This document shows, piece after piece, positions 5,285 to 42,026 of a stretch of DNA of 64,000 nt. This DNA is from Patescibacteria group bacterium (GTDB lineage: Bacteria; Patescibacteriota; Dojkabacteria; JAKAPS01): the NCBI GenBank assembly GCA_025450075.1, contig JANWIC010000011.1, forward strand, positions 902 to 64,901, written 5' to 3'. Position 1 is the stretch's first letter. Each line of letters starts with the position of its first letter. Position numbers and translations under genes: made by a program. The notes beneath the pieces were generated by a model. It was not told the DNA's origin. It searched no databases and saw only the letters and a program-made list of their open reading frames with translations.

Positions 5285-6338
5285 GTCCTTTTTCCCGCAA
5301 AGAATCCCTCAATACCTTATCATCAACGATTTTCTTTAGCAACTCCGCAGCATAAGTCAGGTTAAATTCCTTTGAATCAATTGGCATGCGTAAAGCACTA
5401 TCCTGATATACCTCTTCATATACAGGGATATCAGATATCAGGCAAGGTATTCCGCATGCCATATTCTCAAGCACTGACAAACCAAAACCTTCATACGAAG
5501 AAAGATTGCAATATGCATCAGCATGCTGCATCAAACGAATCTTTTCTTCATCTGATACAAACCCTAAAAAATGGATGGATTCAGATGCATATGAACTGTA
5601 TGCCTCATAACCATCTCCTATGCATACTAGACTATATCCTTGTTCATCATATTGTTCTTTGAATTTTTTGAATACTTCTAATAATAATGAAACATTTTTA
5701 TTCGGTTCATATCCTCCGTAATACAAGATATATTTAGAAGGAACTTTATGTTCTGGAATACCCTGATCTTGCTCAAATCTGGATATATCAACTCCTAATG
5801 GGACAATATCTATTTGGTGCAAATTAAATTTCGATTCTAAATCAAGTTTGGATACTTCTGAGTTAGTTAAAATTCTGTCCGCATATTTTAACAACTTCCA
5901 ATCCTGCATGTATTGTTGTTTCTTCATGAAATTTATAGCTGGATTTAGTGAATACCTACCAGTTGTTGCCTGAATTATGTCATGTACAAAGCATACTGTC
6001 ACATACTGCTTTGGATTGTAAGGCACACCGGAATGGATAAACGGAGAAAAAAATGCTTTAAGTTTTTTACCTTGGCTTGATGAAATATATGTATTGATTC
6101 GGGAATATAGGCCACTTTTATATTTAAATTTTGTAATAGGGGTAAGCGCTATAGACATACCAATATCAACAAAGGAAACTTCTTTTGGAATTTGTATTGT
6201 CGAGCTTGTGGAAAATCCGAATAACACGATTTCTTCAGGGTGCTCCAGAATCCATCTAGAAACAATTTCTTTTGTTACATTTCCAATTCCTCTATATCGA
6301 AATTGGTTCTGGGTTGTGGTGATATCAATACCTATCAT
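5208..6338 (-). CDS. Glycosyltransferase family 4
   Basis: 376 aa. YEGFGLSVLENMACGIPCLISDIPVYEEV is the classic GT1/GT4 nucleotide-sugar binding motif. Confidence 0.75.
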   Translation of the reverse strand: MIGIDITTTQNQFRYRGIGNVTKEIVSRWILEHPEEIVLFGFSTSSTIQIPKEVSFVDIGMSIALTPITKFKYKSGLYSRINTYISSSQGKKLKAFFSPFIHSGVPYNPKQYVTVCFVHDIIQATTGRYSLNPAINFMKKQQYMQDWKLLKYADRILTNSEVSKLDLESKFNLHQIDIVPLGVDISRFEQDQGIPEHKVPSKYILYYGGYEPNKNVSLLLEVFKKFKEQYDEQGYSLVCIGDGYEAYSSYASESIHFLGFVSDEEKIRLMQHADAYCNLSSYEGFGLSVLENMACGIPCLISDIPVYEEVYQDSALRMPIDSKEFNLTYAAELLKKIVDDKVLRDSLREKGLEKSRFYTWDNTYSKVRDILLQYER

Positions 6339-6700
6339 TTTAAGAAGTTTCTGACTTCGTCAGTTAGCTGGCTTGGCAGGATGATTGCTTTAATGAGATA
6401 CCCGTCTGCTCCATTCGCAAACGCTTCATTTATAATTGCCGGTGCATCAATATTAGAGATTAACACAACTTTTATCCCTTTGTATTTCTCATCCGTCTTA
6501 ATTCGTTTTAATGCATCAATACCTGATCCATCAGGAAGCATTATATCAAGAAGAATTAAATCAGGCGAGAATTCATCAATTGATGGGAACATTTCAACTA
6601 TACTTCCGACAACTAAAGTTTCAAAACCATTAAACTCAAGTTCTGATTTATATATATTCGAGATATCCGTGTTGTCTTCAACTATTAATATCTTCGCCAC
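6335..6700 (-). CDS. Response regulator, stand-alone receiver (CheY-like) domain
   Basis: 121 aa. ILIVEDN...[16 protein letters not shown]...KVVLISN pattern with the conserved Asp pocket. No output domain. Start overlaps the GT stop by 4 nt (ATGA). Confidence 0.8.
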   Translation of the reverse strand: MAKILIVEDNTDISNIYKSELEFNGFETLVVGSIVEMFPSIDEFSPDLILLDIMLPDGSGIDALKRIKTDEKYKGIKVVLISNIDAPAIINEAFANGADGYLIKAIILPSQLTDEVRNFLK

Positions 6701-6702
6701 AG

Positions 6703-7938
6703 TTAATTTTTCTGATATGGAATATATATCATGAAATGAATTACATCATCATGATCTTTTTTTAATTCAATTCGTCCTTCATGCGATTCAATAATTAGTT
6801 TTGAAGTATATACTTTCAACATCGAGTTTTTATTCATTTTATTCTCAAATACATATTCATTACTGAATATCTCAAGATTGGCATATTTTTTTACTTCAGC
6901 GGTAACCTCAATGCATAAGTTATCATCAATATGTTTAAATGACATTTGGATCTTTTGACCGGAAATGTTGAAAAGATAGAAAAGTATATTTTTGATTGCA
7001 ATCTTTAACCTATATTCATCAATTCTTACTTGTTCTCCCTTAGCAGTTTCATCCTGGAACCCTATTTCGCATTTAAACAATTTAGAAAATGCTGCAGCAT
7101 CTTCTTTTAAAGTAGCAACAAATTCATTTACGGAGACTACCTTCCTTCGAAGTTTAATTGTATCTTCAATTTCAATAATATGGAGCAATTCTTCAACAAT
7201 ACTATCAACTTTTAAGACATTGGTCAAAATGTTATTAATATACTCAGTCACCCTTTCATCTAAATCTCCAACCCTGCCATGCAGCATCAAGTCAATATAT
7301 CCTTTAATTGCTGACATTGGAGTTTTTATGCTTTCTGCCGCATCAGTTACAAATGTATCTTTTAATTCATTTAATTCTTCTTCATGTACATCGTTTTCAA
7401 GAACTATATTTAACTTTCCTTCTTTTTCATACAGTTCATTTGCAAGCCATCCAGTAATCCAGCTTAAGAAAACTAAAATGAGGATACGGATGAAATATGT
7501 TGTGAAAAAAAGAGAAGAATCATAAGATGGAAGTGAAGCTAGAAGAAAGATTGCATAAGAAAAACCTGCAATAATTCCTTCAGTCATTGCACTTAAAAGA
7601 CCATATTCTGCTGTATTTATAGCAATCGAAAATAGGACAAAAAGATACAAATCAGTATTGAGTGCATTTGCAAAAAAAAGAGCACACGTGAGGGCTGCTC
7701 CGTCAAGTGCTGATACAAAAGCTCCAATTAGTCTTGGATTTGCACCGCGTGATATGAGTAATGAGGCAACATTCTTGTATAGTTCTGATAAAAATATAAT
7801 ACCGAGTAATATTAAAAGAGAAGGTATACTTGCATGGAGTAGAACTGCCGCAAATACAATCATAAGCTTTACCAACACTCGAAGCATAATGAGGACATAG
7901 GTTCGCATCATCATATTTTTGTCTTTAAGTGGGACCAT
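6703..7938 (-). CDS. Membrane sensor histidine kinase with a divergent, possibly degenerate ATP-binding domain
   Basis: 411 aa. Five or six N-terminal TM helices. HisKA-like H-box ESIKTPMSAIKGYIDLMLHG. The C-terminal N-box-like segment IKNILFYLFNIS is present, but no clear DxGxG or GxGxG G-boxes. Confidence 0.6.
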   Translation of the reverse strand: MVPLKDKNMMMRTYVLIMLRVLVKLMIVFAAVLLHASIPSLLILLGIIFLSELYKNVASLLISRGANPRLIGAFVSALDGAALTCALFFANALNTDLYLFVLFSIAINTAEYGLLSAMTEGIIAGFSYAIFLLASLPSYDSSLFFTTYFIRILILVFLSWITGWLANELYEKEGKLNIVLENDVHEEELNELKDTFVTDAAESIKTPMSAIKGYIDLMLHGRVGDLDERVTEYINNILTNVLKVDSIVEELLHIIEIEDTIKLRRKVVSVNEFVATLKEDAAAFSKLFKCEIGFQDETAKGEQVRIDEYRLKIAIKNILFYLFNISGQKIQMSFKHIDDNLCIEVTAEVKKYANLEIFSNEYVFENKMNKNSMLKVYTSKLIIESHEGRIELKKDHDDVIHFMIYIPYQKN

Positions 7939-7981
7939 ACAGGCAATATTTATGTATACTTAATCATATACTGCTCCAGCA

Positions 7982-9130
7982 TTATATACAAGAGGTAATT
8001 ACCTCATGAAGCTTTATTGCTGCACTTTCCCAGCTAAATCTGGAAGCAGCTTTCAATCCTTTGTAAATATATTCTTCCCGTACTTCAAAATGTTCTAAAA
8101 TTCTTTCCAAATGGTTTGCAAATGTATCTGCATCCCTTGGATCAGCAAACATTGCACCATTATCCATGACCTCTCGGATTGCACTAATATTTGATGCAAT
8201 GACACATGTACCACTAAATGATGCTTCAAGCGGGGTCAATCCAACACCTTCAAATCGAGATGGGCAGATAAGTGCAACAGATTTATTTAGGATTGCCTTT
8301 ACTTCAGAATTTTGCTGAACTCTCCCCAATACCAGGACATGCTTTGCAATATTTGTATAATGTTGAGACAAGAGCGTATCAATATCTACAGAATTTTTCA
8401 CTTTCTCCGTATCATATCCACCGATAAGGACAAGGTATAAAGAAGGGTACTTTGGAAGGATTTTTTGTAAAACTTGAAAGGCCGTTTCAAGATTTTTATG
8501 CGGACGTCTATTCCCTACATATACAATATATTGGGAAGGAAGTTGATATTTTTCAATTATTGATTGAATATATGTCTCATCTAAAGGTGCGATGTATTCT
8601 TGTGAAACGGATGGCGTAATGATATGGATACGTTTTGATGGAATATGAAAATATGTTTCAATATCATCTTTCACAGATTTAGTAGAAGCAATTAAACCAA
8701 CAGCAAAACGTGCCATATATGGATAGAATACCTTATCGTACAATTTCTGTTTGAATGAAGTTTTTGCAATATTATGAAAACCAATTAAATCATAAATAAT
8801 CAAAAGATATTTTGGCATGAAAGGAAATGATGACCAAATATCAGTAAGCAAAAGATCCGGTTTCAGCTTTCTATAGATAATTGCAAGATACCAAAAGAGA
8901 AAATATTGTTTAAGAGATCCTCCATTAATATTTACCCTTACATATCTGACTTGTAACTTTGCAAAACTTTCTTTTACAATCTTTTCTCCCCGATCATTAA
9001 AGATAATAATATACTCTTTATCAGGGAAACGTGAAATATATGATGATAATAATGAGAGATAATGACTTCCTATTCCCGTTGGAAAAGGTTTCATCATTCG
9101 AGTATCAATTAGGATCCGTTTGTTCTTCAT
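7982..9130 (-). CDS. Glycosyltransferase family 4
   Basis: 382 aa. PSRFEGVGLTPLEASFSGTCVIASNISAIREV motif. Confidence 0.75.
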   Translation of the reverse strand: MKNKRILIDTRMMKPFPTGIGSHYLSLLSSYISRFPDKEYIIIFNDRGEKIVKESFAKLQVRYVRVNINGGSLKQYFLFWYLAIIYRKLKPDLLLTDIWSSFPFMPKYLLIIYDLIGFHNIAKTSFKQKLYDKVFYPYMARFAVGLIASTKSVKDDIETYFHIPSKRIHIITPSVSQEYIAPLDETYIQSIIEKYQLPSQYIVYVGNRRPHKNLETAFQVLQKILPKYPSLYLVLIGGYDTEKVKNSVDIDTLLSQHYTNIAKHVLVLGRVQQNSEVKAILNKSVALICPSRFEGVGLTPLEASFSGTCVIASNISAIREVMDNGAMFADPRDADTFANHLERILEHFEVREEYIYKGLKAASRFSWESAAIKLHEVITSCI

Positions 9131-9144
9131 ATTTTCGTCATTTC

Positions 9145-9173
9145 ATTATATAGAAAATAGATGAGAAGAACAA
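9145..9173 (-). promoter_or_regulatory. Sigma70-like promoter for the GT4 gene at 7982-9130
   Basis: On the minus strand: TTGTTC, then a 17-nt spacer, then TATAAT, about 15 nt upstream of the start codon. Confidence 0.45.
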
Positions 9174-9206
9174 TTGGTTGTGAGTAAAGTAAAATAAAAG
9201 TATTAT

Positions 9207-9246
9207 AAAAACACATATCCCATATTTCAGGGATATGTGTTTTTTT
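9207..9246. terminator. Bidirectional intrinsic terminator hairpin
   Basis: Perfect 11-bp stem ACACATATCCC / GGGATATGTGT with an 8-nt loop. Flanked by an A-run on the 5' side and TTTTTT on the 3' side, so a U-tract follows the hairpin on either strand. Lies 17 nt downstream of the KGG peptide gene stop. Confidence 0.6.
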
Positions 9247-9263
9247 GTACCCTTTAGATTATC

Positions 9264-9401
9264 TTATTTATTGTTATTTCTTTCTTTTGCTTGCTCATGC
9301 ATCTGTCGACCGCGAGCTTCTCCGCCCTTTTTTGCGACTTCATGTCTGGTCTTTTCACTTGCCAGTGCAAGTCCTCTACCTTTTCCTGAATTTTTTGCCA
9401 T
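9264..9401 (-). CDS. Small KGG-repeat stress-induced protein (YciG/GsiB-like), 45 aa. Not in the ORF track because it is under 60 aa.
   Basis: Minus-strand ORF reads MAKNSGKGRGLALASEKTRHEVAKKGGEARGRQMHEQAKERNNNK. It is preceded by the RBS GGAGGTGG and followed by the strong terminator at 9207-9246. Confidence 0.55.
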   Translation of the reverse strand: MAKNSGKGRGLALASEKTRHEVAKKGGEARGRQMHEQAKERNNNK

Positions 9402-9533
9402 AGCTACCACCTCCTTTCATGCTACTAGTCTAAATAGTCCGACAGCAAAAATCGGTAACTTTTCTTACGCCAGGATAAAGTTTATCAATGACTTTTCCCG
9501 TTACATTAGTCAAAGCATAGATGATGGAGTATA

Positions 9534-12068
9534 ATGGATGCAATAAAAAATACAGCTTTGAAAGACATTATCTCTAGTATTACAGACTCTTTAATCTCCT
9601 ATTTACTGCAAAACTCTAAAGATGTTTTGTATGTAAACATGCCACCAGTAAAAATTCCTGAGAAGTTTGAACGTTATATTACTATTGATGACAGGATCCC
9701 TTCAAAGAAATTTGATACCATTATTATAAATATGGATAAAGAAGTAAATGCCGAAAAGGTGGCAAAATATGTCAATAAATTTCAAAAGTATCTCCTTTTG
9801 GTGCATGGTAACAATCAATTTTTTGATCCGCGAAGTTATCCTGAAGTACGAATTGCAATTAGTACATCTCCAATAATTGAACACGTTCATACATTCACAA
9901 AATTAAGTGAAGGCTACAAAGAATTTCGAGATTCACAAGAGAAATTACAAAAATTTATCAAAGAGCATCATTTAAAACTTGGCATAATTGCACCAACGAC
10001 ACAGAATCAATTTGACCATATCCTCATTTTCCATGACAATAATTTAAAGGATCTCTTTATATCATATATTGAAAATGAAAAGAATGAAGATATTTTTCAC
10101 GAATTCTATTCCATGACCTTTTCCCAATATGCAAAGCATATTGACAGCAGGAATATTCGTTTCCAGAAAAATGCTTCCTACCTTATTAAACAATTACAAA
10201 CTGGAAGCAATAGTACCAAAAGAGGAATATCATCGATTTTTCATTCATTGCAATTACATTTGCCTATCATCATACAAAAGATGCGAGGGAAATCAAATGC
10301 AATTGGATCAAAATTACAAAAAGGAATTCAGACTATTTCTAAAGCAAGAACAAATATTCCAAAAGTAGAAAACAAAGAAAAACTCACCAATAAAAAACCT
10401 CATATGCAGTTAAAAACTGCAACTATACAAAAGGAGAAAGTATCGTCTCAATTGGACAAATTAAAAGTTACACTTTATCAAAGACAACACATTCCTATGG
10501 TGAAAACGATGTCATATGAATCATTTCTTGCAAGACAAAAAAAAGGATTTTTAGAACAATTACAGGAACGACGTTCTTTGCAAACTCTCAAACTACAACC
10601 GAAAGTATCCATACTTTTGGTTGTTGATGATATTGATGAAATTTGGTTAAACAAATCTGTTCGATCAATTAAAGACCAGACATATAAACACTGGGAACTG
10701 GTTATAGTTGATAATTGTTCTCCTAGGACATATTTGAAATCATATTTATCATCTTTAAATGATCCACGAATTAAAACCCATTTCTATAACACAAAAAAGA
10801 CATATGCAGAATGTCTTTCCCATGCATATAAAGTGGCGAAAGGTGAATATTTAGCAATTCTTCATGAAGGAGATGAATTGGATATCAATCTTCTATATCA
10901 TTTTGTTCGGGAAATCAACAAAGAATCGTCACTCGAGTTTATCTATTGTGATGAAGATGAAATTAATGAACAGGGAAAACGAGTTCATCCATTTATCAAA
11001 CCTGCTTGGGATAAAACTCTCATTCTATCTTATCCATATGCAAAAAATATATTTGTTGCAAAGCGGGAATTGCTTGAAAGGATAGATGGATTTAAAAACC
11101 TTGCTACAAAAGACCCGTTATGGGATATCATGATCAAAACAAGAAGTGCAACAAATAATATTGGCCATATCTCTAAAATCTTGTACCATAAACGCCATCG
11201 TCCACTCCAGTCAGGAACACCAAAACAGGTCTATCCTGATGCAATTAAACAATTTATGGCAAGAGAAACAATCCAGGGTGTTGTTAAAGAATCACAATAT
11301 CCGGGAAGCTTTTATATCATTGATAAGCAAGTACAAAATCCACAAGTGTCTTTAGTATTGATTGAGCAAAACCCTGACAACCTCGCAAAGTTTCTGGAGA
11401 ATTTCTCCTGTTCATACAATCAATTTGATATTCATGCCGTATTACCAGTAAATACCCAATTCTCAAACAAGGAAAACATCTATCTCCATTCATTCCAAGA
11501 TTTCTCATTTAGCAAAATTACACAACAAATTCTTCAAGAAAGTAATAGTGACTATCTGCTCTTCATCGACAGTAGGATTCGACCTGTTAATTCGGATTTT
11601 TTATCTATTATGCTTAGTTACAGTCAAAATCGTGCTATAGTTGGAACTAAAATCCTTGATCCGGATGACATGGTTATTCATTCGATGTATGTCCTCAATC
11701 TCCGAGAGGTTGTATCAAGTCTTTATGAAGGACAGATTGATCAAGGCCAATTTGATATATCAATCACACGAGAATGCAGTGCTGTTTCAAGAAAATGTAT
11801 GCTTGTACCAAAGGAATTTCTTCTTACTCATCAATTAGATGATGGATATACTTCATCATATGCTGATATTGATTTGTGTCTGCAGGCACAAAAAGATCAA
11901 ATTCCAGTTATATATACTCCTGATGCATATGCAAAAGCAATTTATGCTTATTCCAAAGAAAAGTTTCACGAGGCAGATACGGTCTATTTTATAAAGAAGT
12001 GGAAAGAAAAGTTAAAAGGAAATGATCCATTCATAGATATCTCCCGTTTCCTATCAATCAAAGCGTAG
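9534..12068 (+). CDS. Large multidomain glycosyltransferase: unknown N-terminal domain followed by two GT2 (GT-A) domains
   Basis: 844 aa. First GT2 signature VSILLVVDDIDEIWLNKSVRSIKDQTYKHWELVIVDNCSP. Second GT-A-like domain runs from about aa 600 (QVSLVLIEQNPDN... DDGYTSSYADIDLCLQ). The N-terminal 350 aa have no recognisable motif. Confidence 0.6.
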   Translation: MDAIKNTALKDIISSITDSLISYLLQNSKDVLYVNMPPVKIPEKFERYITIDDRIPSKKFDTIIINMDKEVNAEKVAKYVNKFQKYLLLVHGNNQFFDPRSYPEVRIAISTSPIIEHVHTFTKLSEGYKEFRDSQEKLQKFIKEHHLKLGIIAPTTQNQFDHILIFHDNNLKDLFISYIENEKNEDIFHEFYSMTFSQYAKHIDSRNIRFQKNASYLIKQLQTGSNSTKRGISSIFHSLQLHLPIIIQKMRGKSNAIGSKLQKGIQTISKARTNIPKVENKEKLTNKKPHMQLKTATIQKEKVSSQLDKLKVTLYQRQHIPMVKTMSYESFLARQKKGFLEQLQERRSLQTLKLQPKVSILLVVDDIDEIWLNKSVRSIKDQTYKHWELVIVDNCSPRTYLKSYLSSLNDPRIKTHFYNTKKTYAECLSHAYKVAKGEYLAILHEGDELDINLLYHFVREINKESSLEFIYCDEDEINEQGKRVHPFIKPAWDKTLILSYPYAKNIFVAKRELLERIDGFKNLATKDPLWDIMIKTRSATNNIGHISKILYHKRHRPLQSGTPKQVYPDAIKQFMARETIQGVVKESQYPGSFYIIDKQVQNPQVSLVLIEQNPDNLAKFLENFSCSYNQFDIHAVLPVNTQFSNKENIYLHSFQDFSFSKITQQILQESNSDYLLFIDSRIRPVNSDFLSIMLSYSQNRAIVGTKILDPDDMVIHSMYVLNLREVVSSLYEGQIDQGQFDISITRECSAVSRKCMLVPKEFLLTHQLDDGYTSSYADIDLCLQAQKDQIPVIYTPDAYAKAIYAYSKEKFHEADTVYFIKKWKEKLKGNDPFIDISRFLSIKA

Positions 12069-14570
12069 AGGCTGGTTAGGGAGTATCTGAGTTCTTCTTT
12101 CTTCATGATGTGAACGTTCTTCTTCAAAAAGAGGTGCAGAAACATTTTTTATCTCTTCATGTTTGAATTGATATGCTTTCATACTCCATTCCTTTATCCA
12201 TTCGTTTACATCTGCTTCAGGGGATGCATACATTGTTCTACTGTATCGCAATATTTCATCCCGAATATGTGTAGCAGCAAAAGGCATTTGGATACTTGCA
12301 GCACTAAATGGTTTTGATACAACTCCTTGTATCATCAGCTTCACATAGACCTCATATCTATCAAGACTCATAAGATCATTTGCTGATAGAATTGGAAGAA
12401 ATTCTCTTTCCAGCACTTGCGCATCTGGGGACCCGAGAACAAAGGTAATGAGCGTTCCAATATTTCCCATGATCGCATCTTTTACATGTTCTTCAAGTTG
12501 TGAAAGATGTTGATGTGCAAGAATTAAATCAAGACGATATTTCCTTGCCTCTGAAAGGATTTTTGTAAATACATCGGTTGCAAACACCTGGAATTCATCG
12601 ATATAGAGATAGAAATCCTCTCTCTGGCTTTCTAAAATACTTACCCTTGCCATTGCAGCCATTTGCATTTTTGTAATTACTAGGCTACCAAGAAGTGAAG
12701 CATTTTCTTCGCCAATTTTCCCTTGAGAAACGTTGCATAAGAATATTTTCTTCTTATTCATGATTTCATCAAAATCAATTTTGTTATGTGTTTGACCAAT
12801 AATATTCCGAAGCATCGGTGATGAAACAAATCGTCCAACTTTGTTTTGAATCGGGGTAATTGCCTCAGTTACTAATCTCGGATTTCTTTCCATATATGCA
12901 TATTCTTCATTCCAAAACTTTTGCAGTATCGGATCTGTTATATTGGAAACGACATATTGTCGATATCCTTTATCAGTAAGCATACGGGATATACCAAGAA
13001 GAGTTGCATCAGGAGTATATAAAAGACTTAATATGACATTATGTAAAATATATTCTAGACGTGGTCCCCATGAATCAAAATGTTTTTTAAATACTGCAAG
13101 GATGCTTGCTGCAATATATTCTCTCTGGGAAGGATGGTCAAATGCAAATATGTTTAAAGAGGCAGGATAAGCAGAATCAGATGGATCAAGCAAGACCACA
13201 TCTTCAACCCGTTCAGATGGAATATGTTCAAGTATTTCATCAATCAGGTCGCCATGAGGATCTATTACACCAACCCCATTACCGGCAAGGATGTCTTGCA
13301 AAATCATATTGCACAGCATTGTCGTCTTACCGCTCCCAGTTTTTCCAAGAAGATACATATGTTTCCTTCTATCTTCTTTCAAAATCCCAAACTGTTTCCC
13401 TCCGCCTCGGTAATTTGTCTGTGCTATGGTAAGCATATTATCTGTCGGCAAATTTAATGGTGGATCAGATCTTCTTGCTTTGAGCCAAATAATTTCTGGT
13501 GTTGTTATGTTTGCATGAGGAAGATGATAAAGTGTAGCAATTTCTGCACAACTGAAAATATCCTGCGCTTCAACATCCAAAAATCTAGTTTTATAATGGT
13601 CAAGCATTTGAGCAGTATATTTATCATTATCCTGTAATACTTTTAATGAATTAAGATGGAATGAATCAACTTGTTTCAGTGCATGAATTACATTTAACAG
13701 GTGTTCTTCAGCCCTCTTTACATCTTGAGATGAAGAAACAATACGAATAGTGCCAGCATAACCATGCTGATGGAATTTTTCTTCGATGGAGTGAATTTCC
13801 TCTTCTTGTGTCTTATCAAGCATCACATTAGATTTTACTTTCCAATGTCTTACTCCAAATATCCATTCATAGATCCTTGTTGTTACGGTAAAAATTGATA
13901 GCCCTGCTTTCCAACCGCTTTTTATTTTAGTCCCTTTTTGCCACGCGGTTAAGTATTCTTTCCCTGCTTTGTGCCAGCTATCATGTAGCGGCCTTATGAC
14001 AAACTGTATTCCCATAGAATCAAACTGCTCCATCCCACCTAATGAAGATGTGATTGATGAAAGTAAATCAACATGAAATTGTTCTCCTGTTTTTATTGGG
14101 AAAAGTGATTCTTTTTCCAATTCGATTTCTGCAGCCTTTATGGTCATTTGCATTTCTCCCCCCATATGCAAACCCTGGGCATAATCATCAACGACATTAA
14201 TCTCTGCTGAAGGATAATGTGCATACCATTGTCCTTCTATATAGTTTTTGTATTGCCGGGGACATACGATATACCATTGGATACCAAAAGGTGTAGCATA
14301 ATATTCACAACTCAAATGGACATAAGAATGTCTCTTTTTTCCCACTATGCTGTGCATAGATGAAAAAAGTTGTTGCGCTTGATCATAGGAAGAAAGATCC
14401 TGTTTCGGGACAAGAATTCGTAATACAACACAATCTTGTATTGTTTCCTCAATATTGTCGATATCAAGATCCCGATTGCGGATAATTTCAATAATTACCG
14501 ATACTGAGATGATAACAATAATTGCAATGATCCAACCAATGCCAAACTCTGGTATTGAAAAAAGAGGCAT
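12054..14570 (-). CDS. Membrane-anchored FtsK/HerA/VirD4-superfamily P-loop ATPase (type IV coupling protein-like, DUF87-like)
   Basis: 838 aa with an N-terminal TM helix and a roughly 400-aa domain without recognisable motifs. Walker A GKTGSGKTT followed by VIDPHGDL. Walker B FYLYIDEFQ. AHQHLSQL resembles the TQS..QL motif of TraD/VirD4/HerA ATPases. Confidence 0.55.
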   Translation of the reverse strand: MPLFSIPEFGIGWIIAIIVIISVSVIIEIIRNRDLDIDNIEETIQDCVVLRILVPKQDLSSYDQAQQLFSSMHSIVGKKRHSYVHLSCEYYATPFGIQWYIVCPRQYKNYIEGQWYAHYPSAEINVVDDYAQGLHMGGEMQMTIKAAEIELEKESLFPIKTGEQFHVDLLSSITSSLGGMEQFDSMGIQFVIRPLHDSWHKAGKEYLTAWQKGTKIKSGWKAGLSIFTVTTRIYEWIFGVRHWKVKSNVMLDKTQEEEIHSIEEKFHQHGYAGTIRIVSSSQDVKRAEEHLLNVIHALKQVDSFHLNSLKVLQDNDKYTAQMLDHYKTRFLDVEAQDIFSCAEIATLYHLPHANITTPEIIWLKARRSDPPLNLPTDNMLTIAQTNYRGGGKQFGILKEDRRKHMYLLGKTGSGKTTMLCNMILQDILAGNGVGVIDPHGDLIDEILEHIPSERVEDVVLLDPSDSAYPASLNIFAFDHPSQREYIAASILAVFKKHFDSWGPRLEYILHNVILSLLYTPDATLLGISRMLTDKGYRQYVVSNITDPILQKFWNEEYAYMERNPRLVTEAITPIQNKVGRFVSSPMLRNIIGQTHNKIDFDEIMNKKKIFLCNVSQGKIGEENASLLGSLVITKMQMAAMARVSILESQREDFYLYIDEFQVFATDVFTKILSEARKYRLDLILAHQHLSQLEEHVKDAIMGNIGTLITFVLGSPDAQVLEREFLPILSANDLMSLDRYEVYVKLMIQGVVSKPFSAASIQMPFAATHIRDEILRYSRTMYASPEADVNEWIKEWSMKAYQFKHEEIKNVSAPLFEEERSHHEERRTQILPNQPLRFD

Positions 14571-35053: not shown

Positions 35054-36064
35054 ATGATTAAAGATTTTTTTCTACCAACAGCATCAAATAAATATTATCC
35101 ATTAAGCTTACAACCTCATTTTTTGTATACGTATCTAGTATTTATGGTTATCTTTAATCTGTTTGCGGGTAGATTTCTTTCAGATTTTCCAGCCAGTGTT
35201 CTTGCCCAAAGTACATATTCGGGAAGCGATATTATCAGTCTTGCAAATCAGGATAGATTAGGAGTAGGTCTCACTTCATTAACTGAAAACCAGCTTCTTG
35301 ATAATGCAGCAAGTGCAAAAGCCACGGATATGCTGAAGTATCAATATTGGGCTCATGACAATCCAACTACAGGTGCAACACCATGGTCCTTTATCGTTGC
35401 AAGTGGCTACAGCTATCACTTTGCAGGAGAAAACCTTGCACAAGGGTTCACCACTGCTGCTGATGTCAACACTGCATGGATGAATAGTCCAGAGCATAAA
35501 GCAAATATCTTAAATTCAAATTATACAGAAATTGGTGTGGCTGTTGTAGATGGAGTATTACTTGGCGGGGATGTAACTCTTGTCGTTGAAATGTTCGGAA
35601 CTCCAAATCCAGTTGTTCAACCAACTGCAATTCCTGCGGCAATTATCCAACCTCCAACCGAAACACCAACAACCACCTCGATTCCACTTGTGCATATTCC
35701 TGCGTATGTAACATCCACTCCAACGCCTACATTAACAGAAACAACGACTCTCTCACCAACATTTACTGTCATACCAACTCAGGTTAACAAAACAGTAAAA
35801 GTAGCGTATAATCAAACGAAGAAGGCACAGCAACCAAAAGTTGTCGAGAATATAACGACAAAAATTGAAGGGATGAAATTTACGAATAGAGTAAATTTAT
35901 TTGTAGGAGTATTTCTTCTTATTATTTTTGCATTGGATGCGCTGTACTATTACAGGGTAAGAAATATTCATAAAAATAACAGGCCGAATTCTATTGCTCA
36001 TCTGCCATTACTGATTTTATTAATCATGATGTGCATAATGGGAGCTACTGGAGTAACAATCTAA
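35054..36064 (+). CDS. CAP/SCP/PR-1-like (YkwD-type) secreted protein with a Thr/Pro-rich linker and C-terminal TM anchor
   Basis: 336 aa. CAP signature region YWAHDNP...HFAGENLAQG...WMNSPEHKANIL...YTEIGVAVV. TPT repeats. C-terminal hydrophobic helix. Confidence 0.65.
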   Translation: MIKDFFLPTASNKYYPLSLQPHFLYTYLVFMVIFNLFAGRFLSDFPASVLAQSTYSGSDIISLANQDRLGVGLTSLTENQLLDNAASAKATDMLKYQYWAHDNPTTGATPWSFIVASGYSYHFAGENLAQGFTTAADVNTAWMNSPEHKANILNSNYTEIGVAVVDGVLLGGDVTLVVEMFGTPNPVVQPTAIPAAIIQPPTETPTTTSIPLVHIPAYVTSTPTPTLTETTTLSPTFTVIPTQVNKTVKVAYNQTKKAQQPKVVENITTKIEGMKFTNRVNLFVGVFLLIIFALDALYYYRVRNIHKNNRPNSIAHLPLLILLIMMCIMGATGVTI

Positions 36065-36065
36065 T

Positions 36066-36878
36066 ATGGGAACTAATTTTGAAAAATATCATAGTGTAAT
36101 ATTTTCTCTTGTTAGTGCAATAGGATTGGAACTGATTGCAATCTTTTATACTTTTCAGGGAATTAACAGCTTTATCATTCTTACGGTACTTTTTTTTATG
36201 GTATTCGTTATTGAAAGCTATTTCAGTTATCAATATGCAAGCCAGCTTAAATCAAAACTTCCTCTTCCCCATCTAGTAGATGAAATTAAGCATATCCATA
36301 TTAGCCATCATATACTCCTTCCCTTTTTGCTTTATTCAAGTATCTGCGCATTCATATTTTTTAATGGAATGCTCTTTCAAACCCAACTAATTATTTTCAT
36401 TGGGATGCTGACGTTCTTCTCCATTTTTGAAGGACAAAGAACAAGTTTTCGAAAAGAATTTATATTTGATGAGCCATTACACTATATTTACGACTCAATA
36501 AAAATTATCATATATTTTTTGGGAATTGATTGCATAATTCAAGGCTCAATATATTTTTCTTGGAATCAACTAATATTTTTTATTCTTTCAGAGGTTCTCG
36601 CATTTACTTTATTCCTTCTTATCATTGTCAGGAAATCACAATTTAACAGTATCGGCATGCTCTATATTTTTGCTGCCTCTGTTCTCATTTCCCTGGTTAC
36701 ACTTACACTTATGCCACATGTTACTATCGCGACTGCAGCTATTCTCTCATCAGTCTTGTATTATTTACTAGTGGGATTGATTCATCATAAGATAAATGCA
36801 TCACTTACCGCAGCTGTCATTAGCGAATATGTGATTATTGCACTCATTGTAATACTCGCAGTAAAGGGAATTTCCTAA
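36066..36878 (+). CDS. Polytopic integral membrane protein, hypothetical
   Basis: 270 aa, about eight predicted TM helices. Confidence 0.4.
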   Translation: MGTNFEKYHSVIFSLVSAIGLELIAIFYTFQGINSFIILTVLFFMVFVIESYFSYQYASQLKSKLPLPHLVDEIKHIHISHHILLPFLLYSSICAFIFFNGMLFQTQLIIFIGMLTFFSIFEGQRTSFRKEFIFDEPLHYIYDSIKIIIYFLGIDCIIQGSIYFSWNQLIFFILSEVLAFTLFLLIIVRKSQFNSIGMLYIFAASVLISLVTLTLMPHVTIATAAILSSVLYYLLVGLIHHKINASLTAAVISEYVIIALIVILAVKGIS

Positions 36879-36882
36879 CTAA

Positions 36883-38172
36883 TTAATATAATGCATAAGC
36901 ATCACCCATTTCACTGAGTGAATAGTATTCATGGGTTCCGCCTCCAGTACCGAGGAATGTTAATCCTGAGCCATACCATGGGTCGTTGATGAGGTAATTA
37001 CCTCCGCCCAGTACCTGGTAAAGAACAACCCAGTGTTCACCTGACGGAGCACTTAGATAGACAATAACCGGATGTCCTTGATTAATTTGAGAATCGATAT
37101 CTGATTGACTATATAGTAAATGTGGGCCGATCGGTAAGCTTGGCCATGCAGCCATATAGTTTCCACTGAACCATGTTCGTGCAGCAATCTCCGGTGGGGT
37201 ATATCCAGCGCCTAATTCTTTAGTTGCTACCATTGCAATATCTGTTATAAGACAGCCATAGGTCATATCGATCGATGTTCCATACATACCCTGGAGTCTT
37301 CCATAACACTGTTGGTTAAAGTACCACCAATTTCCTGCAACACATCCTGTATTTCCACCATATACTGCCACCTGCATTGAGTTCATCTGGCTGACAAGCT
37401 CCTCATATTTTACCTGGTCAGAGCTTAATTGATGGGTTATTGAATTTTTTGAATAATTTAAAGAAGCAAGCTGAGTTTGCAATTGTGATTGCTGATCCTT
37501 TAGGCCATTTTGTTCGTTAACTAATTGTGATTGAGCTGTAGCCAGATCAGCTTCCTGAACACTCAAATCATTTAATTTCTGTTGCATGGTAAACTGATTA
37601 TCTTTCATCTGGCTTAACAAATCAGAATCTTGTTTTCTGGTATTGGTAAAATATTCCAGGTTTGCGAATACATCAGTAATAGATTTATTCCCTAATGTAA
37701 TTAACAAAGGATCGACATAGGAGTTTTCATAACTTATTCGCGCTCGCTGTACAAAATCTGCATACAACGAATTGATTTTTGCATTTAATGCATCAATTTG
37801 TGTTTTCTCATCAGAAATGGATTGGTTTAACAAATCAATTTGCGATTGTTTTTCAGATATTAATTGCTGTTTTTGCGAAATGATATCCTGCAATTGGGAA
37901 ATAGTTTGGGTATTGGATTGTATCTTTCCTTGCAATGATTGTAACTGGCCGACTTCCTGTTGAATTCGAGTGCTTAACTGGGACATCTGACCTTGCAATT
38001 GGTTTATTTCATTCCATAATCCTGAATTTGACTGGGCATTAATATCTGCCGGTTTTGTATAGATGCTTGATGCGGAAATAATTGCGATACACGCAGTGAA
38101 AAAAATAATAGTTTTCCTTTTTAATTTCTTTTTTAGTATTTGTTTATCAGGGAGCAGTTTCATATATTTCAA
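36883..38172 (-). CDS. PcsB/EnvC-like secreted coiled-coil protein with a C-terminal papain-like (C39-like) cysteine peptidase domain. Putative FtsEX-controlled cell-wall hydrolase.
   Basis: 429 aa. Signal/TM, then about 200 aa of Q/L-rich coiled coil. C-terminal domain with Cys (GNTGCVAGNWWYF) and His (GEHWVVLYQ) in papain/C39-like order. Directly upstream of ftsX-ftsE on the same strand. Confidence 0.55.
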   Translation of the reverse strand: MKYMKLLPDKQILKKKLKRKTIIFFTACIAIISASSIYTKPADINAQSNSGLWNEINQLQGQMSQLSTRIQQEVGQLQSLQGKIQSNTQTISQLQDIISQKQQLISEKQSQIDLLNQSISDEKTQIDALNAKINSLYADFVQRARISYENSYVDPLLITLGNKSITDVFANLEYFTNTRKQDSDLLSQMKDNQFTMQQKLNDLSVQEADLATAQSQLVNEQNGLKDQQSQLQTQLASLNYSKNSITHQLSSDQVKYEELVSQMNSMQVAVYGGNTGCVAGNWWYFNQQCYGRLQGMYGTSIDMTYGCLITDIAMVATKELGAGYTPPEIAARTWFSGNYMAAWPSLPIGPHLLYSQSDIDSQINQGHPVIVYLSAPSGEHWVVLYQVLGGGNYLINDPWYGSGLTFLGTGGGTHEYYSLSEMGDAYALY

Positions 38173-38190
38173 ATATTTTTCACATCTATT

Positions 38191-39111
38191 CTAACTCAAT
38201 TTGCTACGTATAGCAATGAAACTCCCAATTGAGCCTACCAAACCGCCAAGAACCATTTCCCCTAAAATGACTAAAAGAATTTGTTCAACTCCTATGGCAG
38301 GAACAGGAATTCCTTTGAAGTATGAAAGAAGAACAATATAGGTAGATGAATAGAATCGAGTAAGAACGAAATACAAAATCCCTACCATTAAAATCGATAC
38401 AAATGCACCGATAATACCATAAATCGCTCCTTCCACAATATATGGAAGTTCAATAAATGAACGTGTGGCACCCACGAGTTCCATTATTTCAATTTCATCA
38501 GAATGAGATGTAAGAGCAATTCCAATTGTAATCCAAATAATGAGGAGAGAAATGCCTGCTAGGAACGAAATGAATGCAAGCGCAGAAATCCTGACAACTT
38601 TAATGAATTCTTTCAAAAAGTCTTCGACATTTTTGTAATACAATATCTTATCAATATTTTTGCTTTGATTTTGGTAGGAATACAAAACATTTGCAATCTT
38701 TTGCAAATCATCAATATTTGTTGTTTTAATTTCCAAACTAGGAGGAAGCTTATCCTCATTAACTGATTGAGATAAAGAAGGGCTATCCTGTTTTAGGAAA
38801 GTCAAATATTTCACATAAGCCTCATGTTTTGATACATAATGAATTTGCGTAGGGACATGTTCTGCAAGAACTGCATTTTTTATCGTATTCATATAGTCAT
38901 CAGCGTATGTGTCGGGATTAAAAAAAACTATAATTTGAGATTGGTTTTCAAAATAGTTAAGGATAATTCCAGCTCCGTAAAGAGATACAATAAAAAGAGA
39001 GGAAACAAAAAAAGTCAAAGCCATAATCAAAATCGAAGCAGCTGATAATTTTGCATTTCTTCTAATATGCAGGTAACTTGTGCGAATAATTCGAGATAGG
39101 TTTAACATCAT
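38191..39111 (-). CDS. ftsX: Cell division permease FtsX
   Basis: 306 aa. One TM, a large extracellular domain, then three TM helices. Adjacent to ftsE. Confidence 0.7.
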   Translation of the reverse strand: MMLNLSRIIRTSYLHIRRNAKLSAASILIMALTFFVSSLFIVSLYGAGIILNYFENQSQIIVFFNPDTYADDYMNTIKNAVLAEHVPTQIHYVSKHEAYVKYLTFLKQDSPSLSQSVNEDKLPPSLEIKTTNIDDLQKIANVLYSYQNQSKNIDKILYYKNVEDFLKEFIKVVRISALAFISFLAGISLLIIWITIGIALTSHSDEIEIMELVGATRSFIELPYIVEGAIYGIIGAFVSILMVGILYFVLTRFYSSTYIVLLSYFKGIPVPAIGVEQILLVILGEMVLGGLVGSIGSFIAIRSKLS

Positions 39112-39117
39112 AATTCG

Positions 39118-39795
39118 TTATTCAAGATATCCTCCTTTTGAATCTCTTACCAATTTTCCACCTTCGATAGCAAGTACTCGTTTTTGTAATGAATTAACCA
39201 CATCAGTAGCATGAGTAGCCATTATGACCGTGGTTCCCCAGTTATTGATTTTGTTTAAGAGTTGTATGATATCCCATTGCATAGATGGGTCAAGATTTCC
39301 CGTCGGTTCATCTGCTATTAATACTTGTGGATCATTAATCATAGCCCTCGCTATTGCGGTTCTTTGTCGTTCTCCTCCGGATAACTGATTAGGAAAGTTT
39401 TTTGCTTTTGTAGTAAGATCAACAAGTTCTAACATATAGTCGACGGATTTTTTAATTTCTGCCTGAGGCTTACCCGCTACTTCCATAGCAAAAGCAACAT
39501 TCTCATATACAGTTTTTGTCGGAAGCAGTTTATAGTCTTGGAAAACAACACCAATTTCACGACGTAAATGCGGTAATCCCTTATTTTTTAATTTCACCAC
39601 ATCAAATCCGGCAAATTTAATACTTCCCGTTGATGGAAGTTCTTCTCGAATCAAAAGTCTAATAATGGTTGATTTTCCTGCGCCTGATGGACCAACGACA
39701 AAGATAAATTCTCCTTCAGCTATGGTAAAAGATACATCATCAAGAGCGATAATATTCTGGTTATACTTTTTTGTTACGTTTTGAAATGTAATCAT
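39118..39795 (-). CDS. ftsE: Cell division ATP-binding protein FtsE
   Basis: 225 aa. GPSGAGKST, LSGGERQRTAIARA, VLIADEPTGNLD. Confidence 0.85.
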   Translation of the reverse strand: MITFQNVTKKYNQNIIALDDVSFTIAEGEFIFVVGPSGAGKSTIIRLLIREELPSTGSIKFAGFDVVKLKNKGLPHLRREIGVVFQDYKLLPTKTVYENVAFAMEVAGKPQAEIKKSVDYMLELVDLTTKAKNFPNQLSGGERQRTAIARAMINDPQVLIADEPTGNLDPSMQWDIIQLLNKINNWGTTVIMATHATDVVNSLQKRVLAIEGGKLVRDSKGGYLE

Positions 39796-39888: not shown

Positions 39889-40995
39889 TTACAGAGATAA
39901 CTCCGCTTTCACAAAAGGTTCTAAATTTCCATCGAGAACACCATCCGCATCTGAGGTTTCCACTCCTGTCCTAAGATCTTTCACAAGTTTATATGGCTGA
40001 AGAACATAATTCCTAATCTGGTTTCCCCATCCTGCAACTTTGTATTCTCCTTTGATATCAGATTTTTCTTTTGCTGCTTTTTCTAACTCAAGTTGGAAAA
40101 GTTTTGCGCGAAGTCTTTTAAGAGCCATATCTTTGTTTTGATATTGCGTACGTTCTGATGATGAGACGACCACAATACCAGTTGGTTTATGAGTCAGCTG
40201 TACTTTTGTATTTACTTTATTCACATTCTGTCCGCCCGCTCCACCACTTCTGGATGCTTGAAATTCAATATCATCATCTTTAATATTTACTTCAGCATTA
40301 GATTCAATCACTGGCATTACTTCAACCAGAGCGAATGATGTTTGTCTTAATCCTTGTGCGTTAAATGGAGAGATACGAACAAGGCGATGTGCACCCATTT
40401 CATGTTTTAAGTAGCCATATACAAAAAGTCCAGATACAACAAGGGTAGCATTATCTATCCCTGCCTCACTTCCTTTTACCACTTCTTCTTCACTAATCTT
40501 CCATCCTTTGGATTGGATATATCGGGTATACATGCGATAAAGTATCTGAGCCCAATCACATGCTTCAGTTCCACCCTGGCCTGCATGGATGGAGATGATT
40601 GCATTTCCTTTATCATATTTACCTGATAAATAAGTGATTATCTCCAGATCCTCAGTTTTGTTCATGAGTGAAATGAGTGAGGTAGACATATCCTGAAGAA
40701 GATTTGAAATCTCTTCTTCACTCATTCCTGCATCATACATTTCTTTAAGTATTTCTTGAATATCTTTTGCTTCAGATTCTATTGATGAAATTCCTGTAAT
40801 CTGGTTTTCAAGAAAAGAAATTTCTTGCATAACTTTTTGAGCATGATCCGTATTTTGCCAAAAATCGGAAGTTAATGATTCTGCTCGAAGCATCTCAACC
40901 TTTTTTTCTAATGTAGGAATATTAAGTGAATCTTTAATTGTATGAATCTTTTCTAAAAGTTCAGCAAGCTTTTTTTCAATTTCGTATTTATCCAT
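39889..40995 (-). CDS. prfB: Peptide chain release factor 2 (no programmed frameshift)
   Basis: 368 aa. GGQ motif ([12 protein letters not shown]) and SPF tripeptide (RISPFNAQG). The N-terminal region is in-frame. Confidence 0.9.
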
Positions 40996-41033: not shown

Positions 41034-41414
41034 TCAGTTTTTAGCAGTAAAGAATGTTTTTACTTCATCCTTTATTTGTGATGGAGAGAATGTAGCTTTA
41101 ATTATATAGCCATCTGCTTGTTCTTGGAATCCTTGAGTAATAACAGATTCATCAGAAACATTTGTAAGCAATATAACCGGAATTGCTGCGGTAAGCGGAT
41201 CAGATTTGAGAGCTTTTAATACTTCAAGCCCGCTCATCAAAGGCAACATAATATCAAGTAGGATAATATCTGGATGATATTCTAATGCGACTTTTAATCC
41301 TTCTTTTCCATCCAGAGCATTTTTTACTTCAAAACCATCTAGTTGGAAACTTTCCGCATAGATTTTTGCTAAATCTTTGTCGTCTTCAATAATGAGAATT
41401 TTTTTATTTGTCAT
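41034..41414 (-). CDS. Response regulator, stand-alone receiver domain
   Basis: 126 aa. [11 protein letters not shown]...[21 protein letters not shown]. Confidence 0.8.
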
Positions 41415-41419
41415 ATATC

Positions 41420-41953
41420 TTAAATATTAAATGCCTTTTTAATTGCGTCTGACATTGCTGTGGTAAACGCAACACTAATATTATCATACCCACTTATAGG
41501 AGAAACTTCAACTACCTGATTTTTCACGGCCTCACTGGCAAGTTGCTCGAGTATTGACATGTCTGTATTTTTAGGCAAAGTTAAAAAATCTACATTTGCT
41601 AATACCCCTTTTGAAATTGTAATCTTGATTATGAGTACACCATCTTGGGTAGAGGAAACACCAGTATATGTACCATCTTTGTATGCACCTGGCGGATTTA
41701 ATTTTGATCCATTAAGTGGTTGAACTGATTGAGCTCCTGTAGCGATTCCAACAGAAAATGTAGTTTCACTTCTGCTTGGATTTTTTTGGTTTGCTGAAGG
41801 TGCCGGATTTGTAACACCTGCAATTACACTTCCAAGAACAGGAACTTTTCTAAAATACTGGGGATCAGTTTTTCCAAGAATGAAAAGGATACCAAGTGCA
41901 GCGATCAGGATAGCAATGAGTACGGTATTTCTTCGGGTTTGTTTCTCTTCCAT
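41420..41953 (-). CDS. FMN-binding domain membrane-anchored protein
   Basis: 177 aa. N-terminal TM. YKDGTYTGVSSTQDGVLIIKITISKG matches the FMN_bind pattern. Confidence 0.5.
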   Translation of the reverse strand: MEEKQTRRNTVLIAILIAALGILFILGKTDPQYFRKVPVLGSVIAGVTNPAPSANQKNPSRSETTFSVGIATGAQSVQPLNGSKLNPPGAYKDGTYTGVSSTQDGVLIIKITISKGVLANVDFLTLPKNTDMSILEQLASEAVKNQVVEVSPISGYDNISVAFTTAMSDAIKKAFNI

Positions 41954-41965
41954 TGATACTCTTAA

Positions 41966-42026
41966 AACACTAAATAGTATACTTCTTTAGTGTTAAATTG
42001 ACAACTTCGCTCGACAAGACTATACT
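41966..42026. promoter_or_regulatory. Divergent overlapping promoters with an inverted repeat
   Basis: Plus strand: TTGACA (41998-42003), 17 nt, TATACT (42021-42026) for the SPFH gene. Minus strand: TTGTCA (rc of 41999-42004), 17 nt, TATACT (rc of 41976-41981) for the FMN-binding gene. 9-bp inverted repeat AACACTAAA/TTTAGTGTT at 41966-41994 encloses the palindrome AGTATACT. Confidence 0.5.

Follow-up and report, generated by a model that had tools for sequence, protein, structure and literature searches.

A Peptidase_C39_2-Like Head on a Candidate FtsEX-Coupled Cell-Wall Hydrolase of a Patescibacteria Group Bacterium

The ftsEX Locus and Its Coiled-Coil Peptidase Gene

The stretch of DNA analyzed here, referred to below as the window, comprises 64,000 nucleotides (nt) of contig JANWIC010000011.1 (assembly GCA_025450075.1) from a Patescibacteria group bacterium. 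It carries ftsE, ftsX and, directly downstream of them, a gene for a coiled-coil protein of 429 amino acids (aa) that ends in a C39-like cysteine peptidase domain. This protein is probably an FtsEX-coupled extracytoplasmic cell-wall hydrolase of the PcsB/CwlO/RipC type with a Peptidase_C39_2-like papain-fold head, a reading that draws on analogy with these known systems.

All three genes lie on the minus strand, as do the features of the 429-aa protein given below. The ftsE gene (39118..39795) encodes the 225-aa ATP-binding cassette (ABC) ATPase of the FtsEX complex, which scores 290.7 bits against NCBIfam TIGR02673 (cutoff 264.85) and matches Pfam ABC_tran at 4.4e-37. It is followed after 6 nt by ftsX (38191..39111), whose 306-aa product is the membrane subunit, permease-like and bearing an extracellular domain; Pfam FtsX_ECD is found at residues 59-146 (35.4 bits, cutoff 23.5) and the FtsX C-terminal domain at residues 179-294, while the match to NCBIfam FtsX_Gpos (1.8e-44, 152.3 bits) falls under the cutoff of that model, 225. 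After a further 18 nt comes the open reading frame (ORF) of the coiled-coil protein (36883..38172), which is read from TTG at 38172 to a stop codon at 36883-36885. An alternative start, ATG at 38163, would give a product of 426 aa, and it may be the true start of the gene, since the public record P0162, which is 100% identical, has exactly this length.

The preliminary description of this DNA had proposed the order (coiled-coil hydrolase)-ftsX-ftsE on one strand, and the ORFs together with the FtsE and FtsX profiles bear this out. Its comparison with an envC-ftsEX order of proteobacteria does not hold for E. coli K-12, where the gene after ftsYEX is rpoH and not envC; adjacency of this kind is common in other lineages.

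Organization of the Protein and Its Coiled Coil

The N-terminus of the protein consists of a basic KKKLKRK stretch and an 18-residue hydrophobic segment, TIIFFTACIAIISASSIY, followed by ...INAQ. Read from the sequence, residues ~18-47 (38032..38121) are predicted to be a signal peptide or membrane anchor, and AlphaFold places a helix at residues 13-29 and a disordered stretch after it.

Residues 48-271 (37360..38031) form a coiled-coil hairpin in the model. Two long antiparallel helices (48-151 and 165-271) with a short turn between them were obtained both in the single-sequence AlphaFold run and in the run with an alignment of 113 sequences, with a predicted local distance difference test score (pLDDT) of ~80-97; the mean pLDDT of the latter run was 80.3. 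The head was left unmodelled in the single-sequence run (pLDDT <50) and was modelled once the alignment had been supplied. Between hairpin and head there is only a short linker (approximately residues 272-276). By analogy with other FtsEX partners, the hairpin is presumed to be the FtsX-binding, signal-transmitting module.

The coiled coil had been described as rich in glutamine and repetitive. The first part of this statement stands, as glutamine makes up 17.5% of the coiled coil against a family median of 11.8%, which places the protein tenth among the 113 aligned members. The second part does not extend to the DNA: Tandem Repeats Finder detected no repeat in the coding sequence of the coiled coil, so that the repetitiveness is of the heptad or compositional kind. 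Column conservation is flat along the coiled coil, and the tip of the hairpin is not singled out.

Several comparisons suggest a relationship between this coiled coil and those of FtsEX-coupled hydrolases and activators. The window protein matches Pfam PF24568 CC_PcsB weakly at residues 126-199 (E 0.015, 15.6 bits, below the cutoff of 27), and the same model is significant in 18 of the 113 relatives (best 1.2e-8); a coiled-coil C39_2 protein from the groundwater locus L037, described below, passes the cutoff with 30.1 bits. Foldseek searches with the model retrieved PcsB (4cgk, rank 3), EnvC in its complex with FtsEX (8tzl_E), RipC in the same type of complex (8idc_E), and the N-terminal domain of RipA (6ewy), while against a viral library they returned only coiled-coil look-alikes such as SMC proteins and tail fibres. 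A BLASTP comparison of residues 41-272 with coiled-coil M23 proteins whose genes follow related ftsX genes gave alignments that were in register and scored up to 50.4 bits; the best of 20 composition-preserving shuffles, used as a control, reached 23.1 bits. The full-length family profile also retrieves coiled-coil proteins bearing M23, CHAP or NlpC/P60 heads.

The C-Terminal Head and Its Predicted Catalytic Residues

Residues 277-429 (36886..37344) constitute the head, a Peptidase_C39_2-like papain-fold domain according to profile and model. While a word-indexed homologue search with the head alone gave 2 matches only, an exhaustive HMMER search with a head profile collected 271 cluster representatives at E<=1e-3, with proteins positive for Pfam PF13529 Peptidase_C39_2 appearing at 1e-16 and weaker. 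Among the 150 matches listed, of these 271, 114 are 360-475 aa long, and the domain is C-terminal in nearly all of those. PF13529 is matched at E<=1e-3 by 96 of the 113 aligned full-length members (best 5.7e-35), and PF03412 Peptidase_C39 by 47 of them; wall-associated fusions occur with LysM (nine members), SH3_3 (three) and GH25 (two). CHAP (PF05257) and NlpC/P60 (PF00877) are absent from the 25 commonest families in the 113 members, and the window protein matched neither, at thresholds of E<=1 for the full length and E<=10 for the head by itself. The window head does give a sub-threshold match to Peptidase_C70 (E 0.0086).

Six columns of the alignment are invariant in all 113 sequences, namely Q287, G306, C307, P326, H380, and D397, and they contain the Gln/Cys/His/Asp set of the papain clan. 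Gln287 (codon 37312..37314) is the predicted oxyanion-hole residue, Cys307 (37252..37254), within TYGCLITDIAMVA, the predicted nucleophile, His380 (37033..37035), within GEHWVV, the predicted catalytic base, and Asp397 (36982..36984), within INDPW, the predicted third residue of the triad; P398, next to Asp397, is kept in 112 of the 113. The preliminary description had pointed to the histidine of GEHWVVLYQ, which is H380, and to the cysteine of GNTGCVAGNWW, which is C277. The histidine was chosen correctly. C277 was rejected as the nucleophile, as cysteine occupies this column in only 9 of the 113 members (mostly L/I/V in the others), and the invariance of Q287, C307, H380 and D397 points to C307 as the catalytic cysteine.

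C277 has a distribution of its own. It is invariant in the five proteins of the sub-clade to which the window protein belongs (alignment A3), where it is accompanied by a second cysteine at position 289 (window, P0005, P0006) or 286 (P0003, P0004). The pair, encoded in the window at 37342-37344 and 37306-37308, suggests a sub-clade-specific disulfide, C277-C289/C286, in a putatively exported head.

The model, like the residues, agrees with a papain-like enzyme. The head comprises a helix at 306-320 and strands at 369-375, 378-389, 392-397, 401-405, and 422-428, and pLDDT in its core is mostly 84-96. C307 stands at the N-terminus of the helix, H380 near the start of strand 378-389, and D397 at the end of strand 392-397, an arrangement in line with a papain-like topology, with cysteine at a helix N-terminus and histidine and aspartate on consecutive strands. 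A profile search of the PDB found 3erv, a 'putative C39-like peptidase' (4.5e-6), in which C307 aligns to the cysteine of dRGCEVTSLAMML; further relatives were OspI, the C39 domains of ComA and PCAT1, AvrRpt2, and the pseudomurein endoisopeptidase PeiR. Thus, the proposal that FtsEX is paired here with a coiled-coil protein bearing a papain/C39-like head instead of CHAP or M23 is supported by the PF13529 matches of the relatives, the invariant residues and the topology of the model.

It is conceivable, in principle, that the head is catalytically dead and that the protein acts as an activator or adaptor for another hydrolase. EnvC, whose LytM domain is degenerate, shows that an FtsEX coiled coil can carry a head without catalytic activity (PMC11627006), and the window protein scores below the Pfam threshold of its family. 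However, glutamine, cysteine, histidine, and aspartate are invariant in 113 of 113 members, the window protein included, which is unlike a degenerate active site, and no part of the protein is conserved better than the head: within the sub-clade it is ~63% identical, as against ~30-50% for the coiled coil, a difference that suggests stronger constraint on the head. A dead activator is therefore rejected as a very improbable explanation. Since the catalytic set is intact, a direct hydrolase, similar to PcsB or RipC, is to be expected rather than an activator similar to EnvC.

Two relatives extend the range of architectures in which the head is found. P0019, a protein of 573 aa, has two tandem C39_2-like domains and a C-terminal segment that resembles SleB/CwlJ by eye; if this resemblance holds, it is a further association of the C39_2 head with wall-lytic modules. 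A stand-alone copy of the head, 163 aa long and 52% identical to that of the window (P0001, at 188-679 of L001), lies on a 2-kb contig and has neither signal peptide nor coiled coil. Either it is what remains of a mobile or phage gene, or the assembly may be truncated; both are conceivable. A search of PHROGs gave nothing for the window head and marginal matches for one relative (endolysin phrog_10051, E 0.0038).

Linkage to ftsEX Among Relatives

Metagenome-assembled genomes labelled 'bacterium' or 'Patescibacteria group bacterium' are the source of the closest homologues; for those at a greater distance the label is Candidatus Roizmanbacteria or Patescibacteria. Related loci were gathered with the sub-clade alignments A3 and A6, and the resulting sample of synteny is one of a dozen loci, not a census. 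The coiled-coil C39 gene stands directly after ftsX, or within 2.2 kb of it, in 11 of the 12 informative loci (L037 counted), so that the co-occurrence with ftsEX predicted for relatives is found down to ~25% identity. The order ftsE-ftsX-(coiled-coil C39) is present in four loci of the sub-clade whose proteins are 39-47% identical to that of the window (L002, L003, L005, L098), and in these, as in the window, a convergent polytopic membrane protein gene and/or a CAP-domain gene follows. At ~23-27% identity two arrangements occur: prfB-x-ftsE-ftsX-(coiled-coil C39_2)...VanZ-CAP (P0152 from Roizmanbacteria, and P0157) and secA-ftsE-ftsX-(coiled-coil C39_2)-S41/CtpB-like protease (P0154, P0159, P0160). 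P0155, which is encoded at the end of a contig, says nothing about linkage.

These loci bear on the possibility that the protein is a lytic enzyme independent of FtsEX, either an autolysin or a weapon against neighbour or host cells, and that the adjacency reflects co-expression or chance. Candidate-phyla-radiation bacteria are often epibionts, which would suit a weapon; the stand-alone head copy P0001 and a homologue located away from ftsEX, among genes for YfhO-like, GH18 and subtilisin-like proteins (L004), also fit an independent enzyme. Nevertheless, we judge this possibility improbable, given that the adjacency holds in 11 of 12 informative loci at ~25-47% identity and in two different flanking contexts, and that the coiled coil appears to share ancestry with the coiled coils of proteins known to bind FtsX. 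Moreover, the adjacency tracks the coiled coil, because a LysM-C39_2 relative without a coiled coil, whose locus was inspected, has no ftsEX nearby.

In the L004 locus (3159-11394), the homologue is accompanied by a GH18 protein that bears RCC1-like repeats; a 704-aa ORF, subtilisin-like by eye, has the same repeat tail. This neighborhood may be a cell-envelope remodelling cluster.

Evidence for Head Exchange on a Common Scaffold

Metagenome contigs were also scanned with FtsX alone, as an independent test, which gave 80 loci. With the hidden Markov model of the head, L037 was the sole locus of the 80 to show a C39-like gene. In all 16 loci in which FtsX is 27-35% identical to that of the window and downstream sequence is present, a coiled-coil M23 gene directly follows ftsX. 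Across the wider neighborhood, C39_2 is thus not the usual partner; it occupies the slot filled by M23 elsewhere. Together with the conserved ftsEX synteny, these M23 genes support the earlier suggestion of a lineage-specific variant.

The L037 locus, from Hainich groundwater (3785-8692), contains prfB, ftsE, an extra FtsX-ECD fragment, ftsX, a coiled-coil CHAP gene, an IS200-like transposase gene, and a coiled-coil C39_2 gene. The extra ORF before the full-length ftsX encodes 143 aa, made up of one transmembrane segment and the FtsX extracellular domain. The coiled coils of the CHAP and C39_2 partners are 38% identical (E 2e-41) and nearly identical around the tip of the hairpin; their heads are unrelated. 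At the level of sequence, this locus is direct evidence of head exchange on a common FtsEX-type scaffold, and it looks like a snapshot of duplication followed by such an exchange.

Proposed Function

In the proposed mechanism, the N-terminal hydrophobic segment would export or anchor the hydrolase, and the tip of its two-helix coiled-coil hairpin would be gripped by the extracellular domains of an FtsX dimer. At the division site, FtsE would bind and hydrolyse ATP and so alter the conformation of FtsX, and this change would pass along the coiled coil and thereby release or position the peptidase head. The head would then cut peptide or amide bonds of septal peptidoglycan, allowing daughter cells to separate. 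The binding to FtsX, the autoinhibition and its release, the peptidoglycan substrate, and the bond cut are all inferred from analogous systems. A wall substrate is supported indirectly by the fusions of the head to LysM, SH3_3 and GH25 and by endolysin precedents: Peptidase_C39_2 is listed as an endolysin catalytic domain (PMC8223927), and the N5 domain of mycobacteriophage LysA matches a C39-like peptidase of B. anthracis (PMC3314691).

A number of observations weigh against this interpretation. The window head alone matches PF13529 at E 0.0044 and 18.0 bits, below the gathering cutoff of 24, and the full-length protein does not match PF13529 at E<=1. The window sub-clade has QQCYG in place of the usual QRDxRW motif. 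In the Foldseek search with the full model, SpeB was found for the head with probability 1.0 but at a root-mean-square deviation of 4-5 A over ~92 columns, which is modest support at the level of the fold. L004 is a close homologue encoded away from ftsEX, with genes for a YfhO-like membrane protein and a GH18 protein on either side. Elsewhere in the clan, the relatives found by profile are proteases or deamidases with protein substrates, and no PF13529 member is known to have a biochemically defined peptidoglycan bond specificity. As the head falls below the cutoff though 96 of 113 homologues pass it, it is best regarded as a divergent relative and not as a model-defined member of PF13529; in view of the low score and the QQCYG motif, its membership rests on profile links and conserved residues.

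The nature of the relatives leads to a further possibility, that of an FtsEX-controlled protease acting on a protein or peptide, such as a surface or surface-layer (S-layer) protein, a pilin, or a secreted precursor of the double-glycine type, and not on peptidoglycan. The nearest characterised profile relatives include enzymes of this kind (the C39 leader peptidases ComA and PCAT1, AvrRpt2, and the deamidase OspI), 47 of the 113 homologues also match PF03412, and an S41 protease and a T2SSG-like protein adjoin some of the loci. We nonetheless regard such a protease as unlikely. Coiled-coil cell-wall enzymes of the M23, CHAP and NlpC/P60 kinds have this scaffold and this position in the locus; relatives carry the head fused to LysM, SH3_3 and GH25, and it is catalogued as an endolysin catalytic domain; and the fusion to an ABC exporter, which defines true C39 leader peptidases, is missing. 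A more specific version, in which the FtsEX-gated C39_2 head is a protease for a surface-layer, pilus or host-cell envelope protein and not a conventional septal autolysin, is quite unlikely. If it were true, FtsEX would act as a mechanotransmitter that governs proteolysis outside the cell, and not the cleavage of the wall, in episymbiotic bacteria with reduced genomes.

Returning to an FtsEX-coupled wall hydrolase, relatives of the window protein have already been annotated as 'C39 family peptidase' (NCBI) or 'peptidoglycan hydrolase CwlO-like protein' (JGI). In the literature library that was searched, we found no description of an FtsEX-C39 pairing, nor of the FtsEX partner, be it of the PcsB, CwlO or EnvC type, in Patescibacteria/candidate phyla radiation. 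A review from 2024 names LytM/M23, CHAP, and NlpC/P60 as the only heads of FtsEX partners (PMC11627006). The Peptidase_C39_2-like domain would thus be a fourth type of head on FtsEX coiled-coil partners, one that recurs in Patescibacteria/candidate-phyla-radiation genomes. It seems that the coiled coil serves as a portable scaffold for docking to FtsX, with swappable hydrolase heads; L037 combines two heads, paralogous scaffolds and one ftsEX. Such a role would provide a functional context, division-linked wall cleavage, for a large and poorly characterised peptidase family. It would also make the protein a candidate for a probably important division enzyme in a radiation whose members are difficult to culture. 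The way in which FtsEX is understood to work does not change, and the present case is a modest variant of a well-understood system.

Comparison with Known Systems

PcsB of S. pneumoniae (coiled coil and CHAP, 4CGK), which depends on FtsEX (PMC11627006), resembles the predicted organization of the window protein in being secreted and in combining an N-terminal coiled coil with a C-terminal papain-clan Cys/His hydrolase. In addition, in L037 a coiled-coil CHAP paralogue lies near the coiled-coil C39_2 gene. The differences are that the window head is Peptidase_C39_2-like and not CHAP, that the coiled coil of PcsB has five helices whereas the window model is a simple two-helix hairpin, and that the window hydrolase gene adjoins ftsEX, in contrast to pcsB, which is not known to be linked to ftsEX in S. 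pneumoniae.

CwlO of Bacillus subtilis and RipC of Mycobacterium tuberculosis (8IDC/8IDD) are direct, FtsEX-activated NlpC/P60 hydrolases of monoderm-type or mycolate envelopes, and they share with the window protein a coiled-coil hairpin followed by a papain-clan head. In contrast to them, the window protein has no NlpC/P60 match, and its Gln/Cys/His/Asp residues follow the C39_2 order. The linker of RipC is proline-rich and that of the window protein short, although the coiled-coil C39_2 protein of L037 has a proline-rich linker as well. With the EnvC-type coiled-coil M23/LytM proteins it shares the hairpin and, judging from the nearest FtsX relatives (16 loci), the slot directly after ftsX; envC of E. 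coli, however, is not next to ftsEX. The head of EnvC has a zinc-metallopeptidase fold, is degenerate in E. coli and serves as an amidase activator, whereas the window head, to judge by its residues, appears to be an active cysteine peptidase.

Among peptidase families, PF13529 (3ERV, phage endolysin domains) is the best sequence-family match for the window head. The window sub-clade departs from it in its sub-cutoff score, the QQCYG motif, the extra cysteine pair, a GTGGGTHEYY insertion, which the window head carries, and the fusion to an FtsEX-type coiled coil. PF03412 (ComA, PCAT1) belongs to the same clan, has the same Gln/Cys/His/Asp order and gives weak profile matches. True C39 domains, however, are found in the cytoplasm at the N-terminus of ABC exporters, where they cleave (double-glycine) leader peptides of bacteriocins, whereas the window domain is C-terminal, after a signal segment and a coiled coil, has no transporter fusion, is predicted to be exported, and pairs with FtsEX. 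FtsEX is not known to transport anything.

Neighboring Genes and Minor Observations

The surrounding 64 kb is ordinary chromosome of low GC content (~35%), which also encodes IleRS, SerRS, SecA, RecA, RecJ, SecD/F, RelA/SpoT, MiaA, YmdB, UppP, and a GT4 cluster. Local profiles detected no second C39-like, M23 or CHAP gene in the window, a weak test in which the M23 and CHAP seeds were single sequences.

Upstream of ftsE on the same strand lies prfB (39889..40995), which encodes peptide chain release factor 2 (368 aa; Pfam PCRF 1.9e-47, RF-1 1.8e-35) and is probably co-transcribed with ftsEX. It is upstream of ftsEX in eight related loci as well (L002, L003, L005, L006, L007, L013, L014, L037). 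Many bacterial prfB genes carry a +1 programmed frameshift; that of the window is one uninterrupted ORF with no sign of it. A receiver-only response regulator gene (41034..41414, minus strand; Pfam Response_reg 4.7e-23) comes next, an arrangement kept in L002, L003 and L005, and a gene for a 177-aa protein without a Pfam match heads this same-strand series, which runs from 41953 to 36883. The presence of the response regulator and the 177-aa protein upstream of prfB-ftsEX (41034-41953) hints at co-regulation with the division genes. The strongest promoter-like sites were found at 41976-42026, in the divergent region.

On the plus strand, convergent to the hydrolase gene, there are genes for a CAP/SCP (PR-1-like) protein with a Thr/Pro-rich linker and C-terminal transmembrane helices (35054-36064) and for a 270-aa polytopic membrane protein (36066-36878). 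A CAP-domain gene is located near ftsEX-(coiled-coil C39) in seven other loci (L002, L003, L005, L098, L006, L008, L013), and it recurs even at ~25% identity. Further away, an 838-aa protein with a TrwB/VirD4-type coupling-protein domain is encoded on the minus strand (12054-14570); the region adjoining it (3001-12068) carries genes for four GT4 glycosyltransferases, a GT2 protein, and a HisKA-domain protein.

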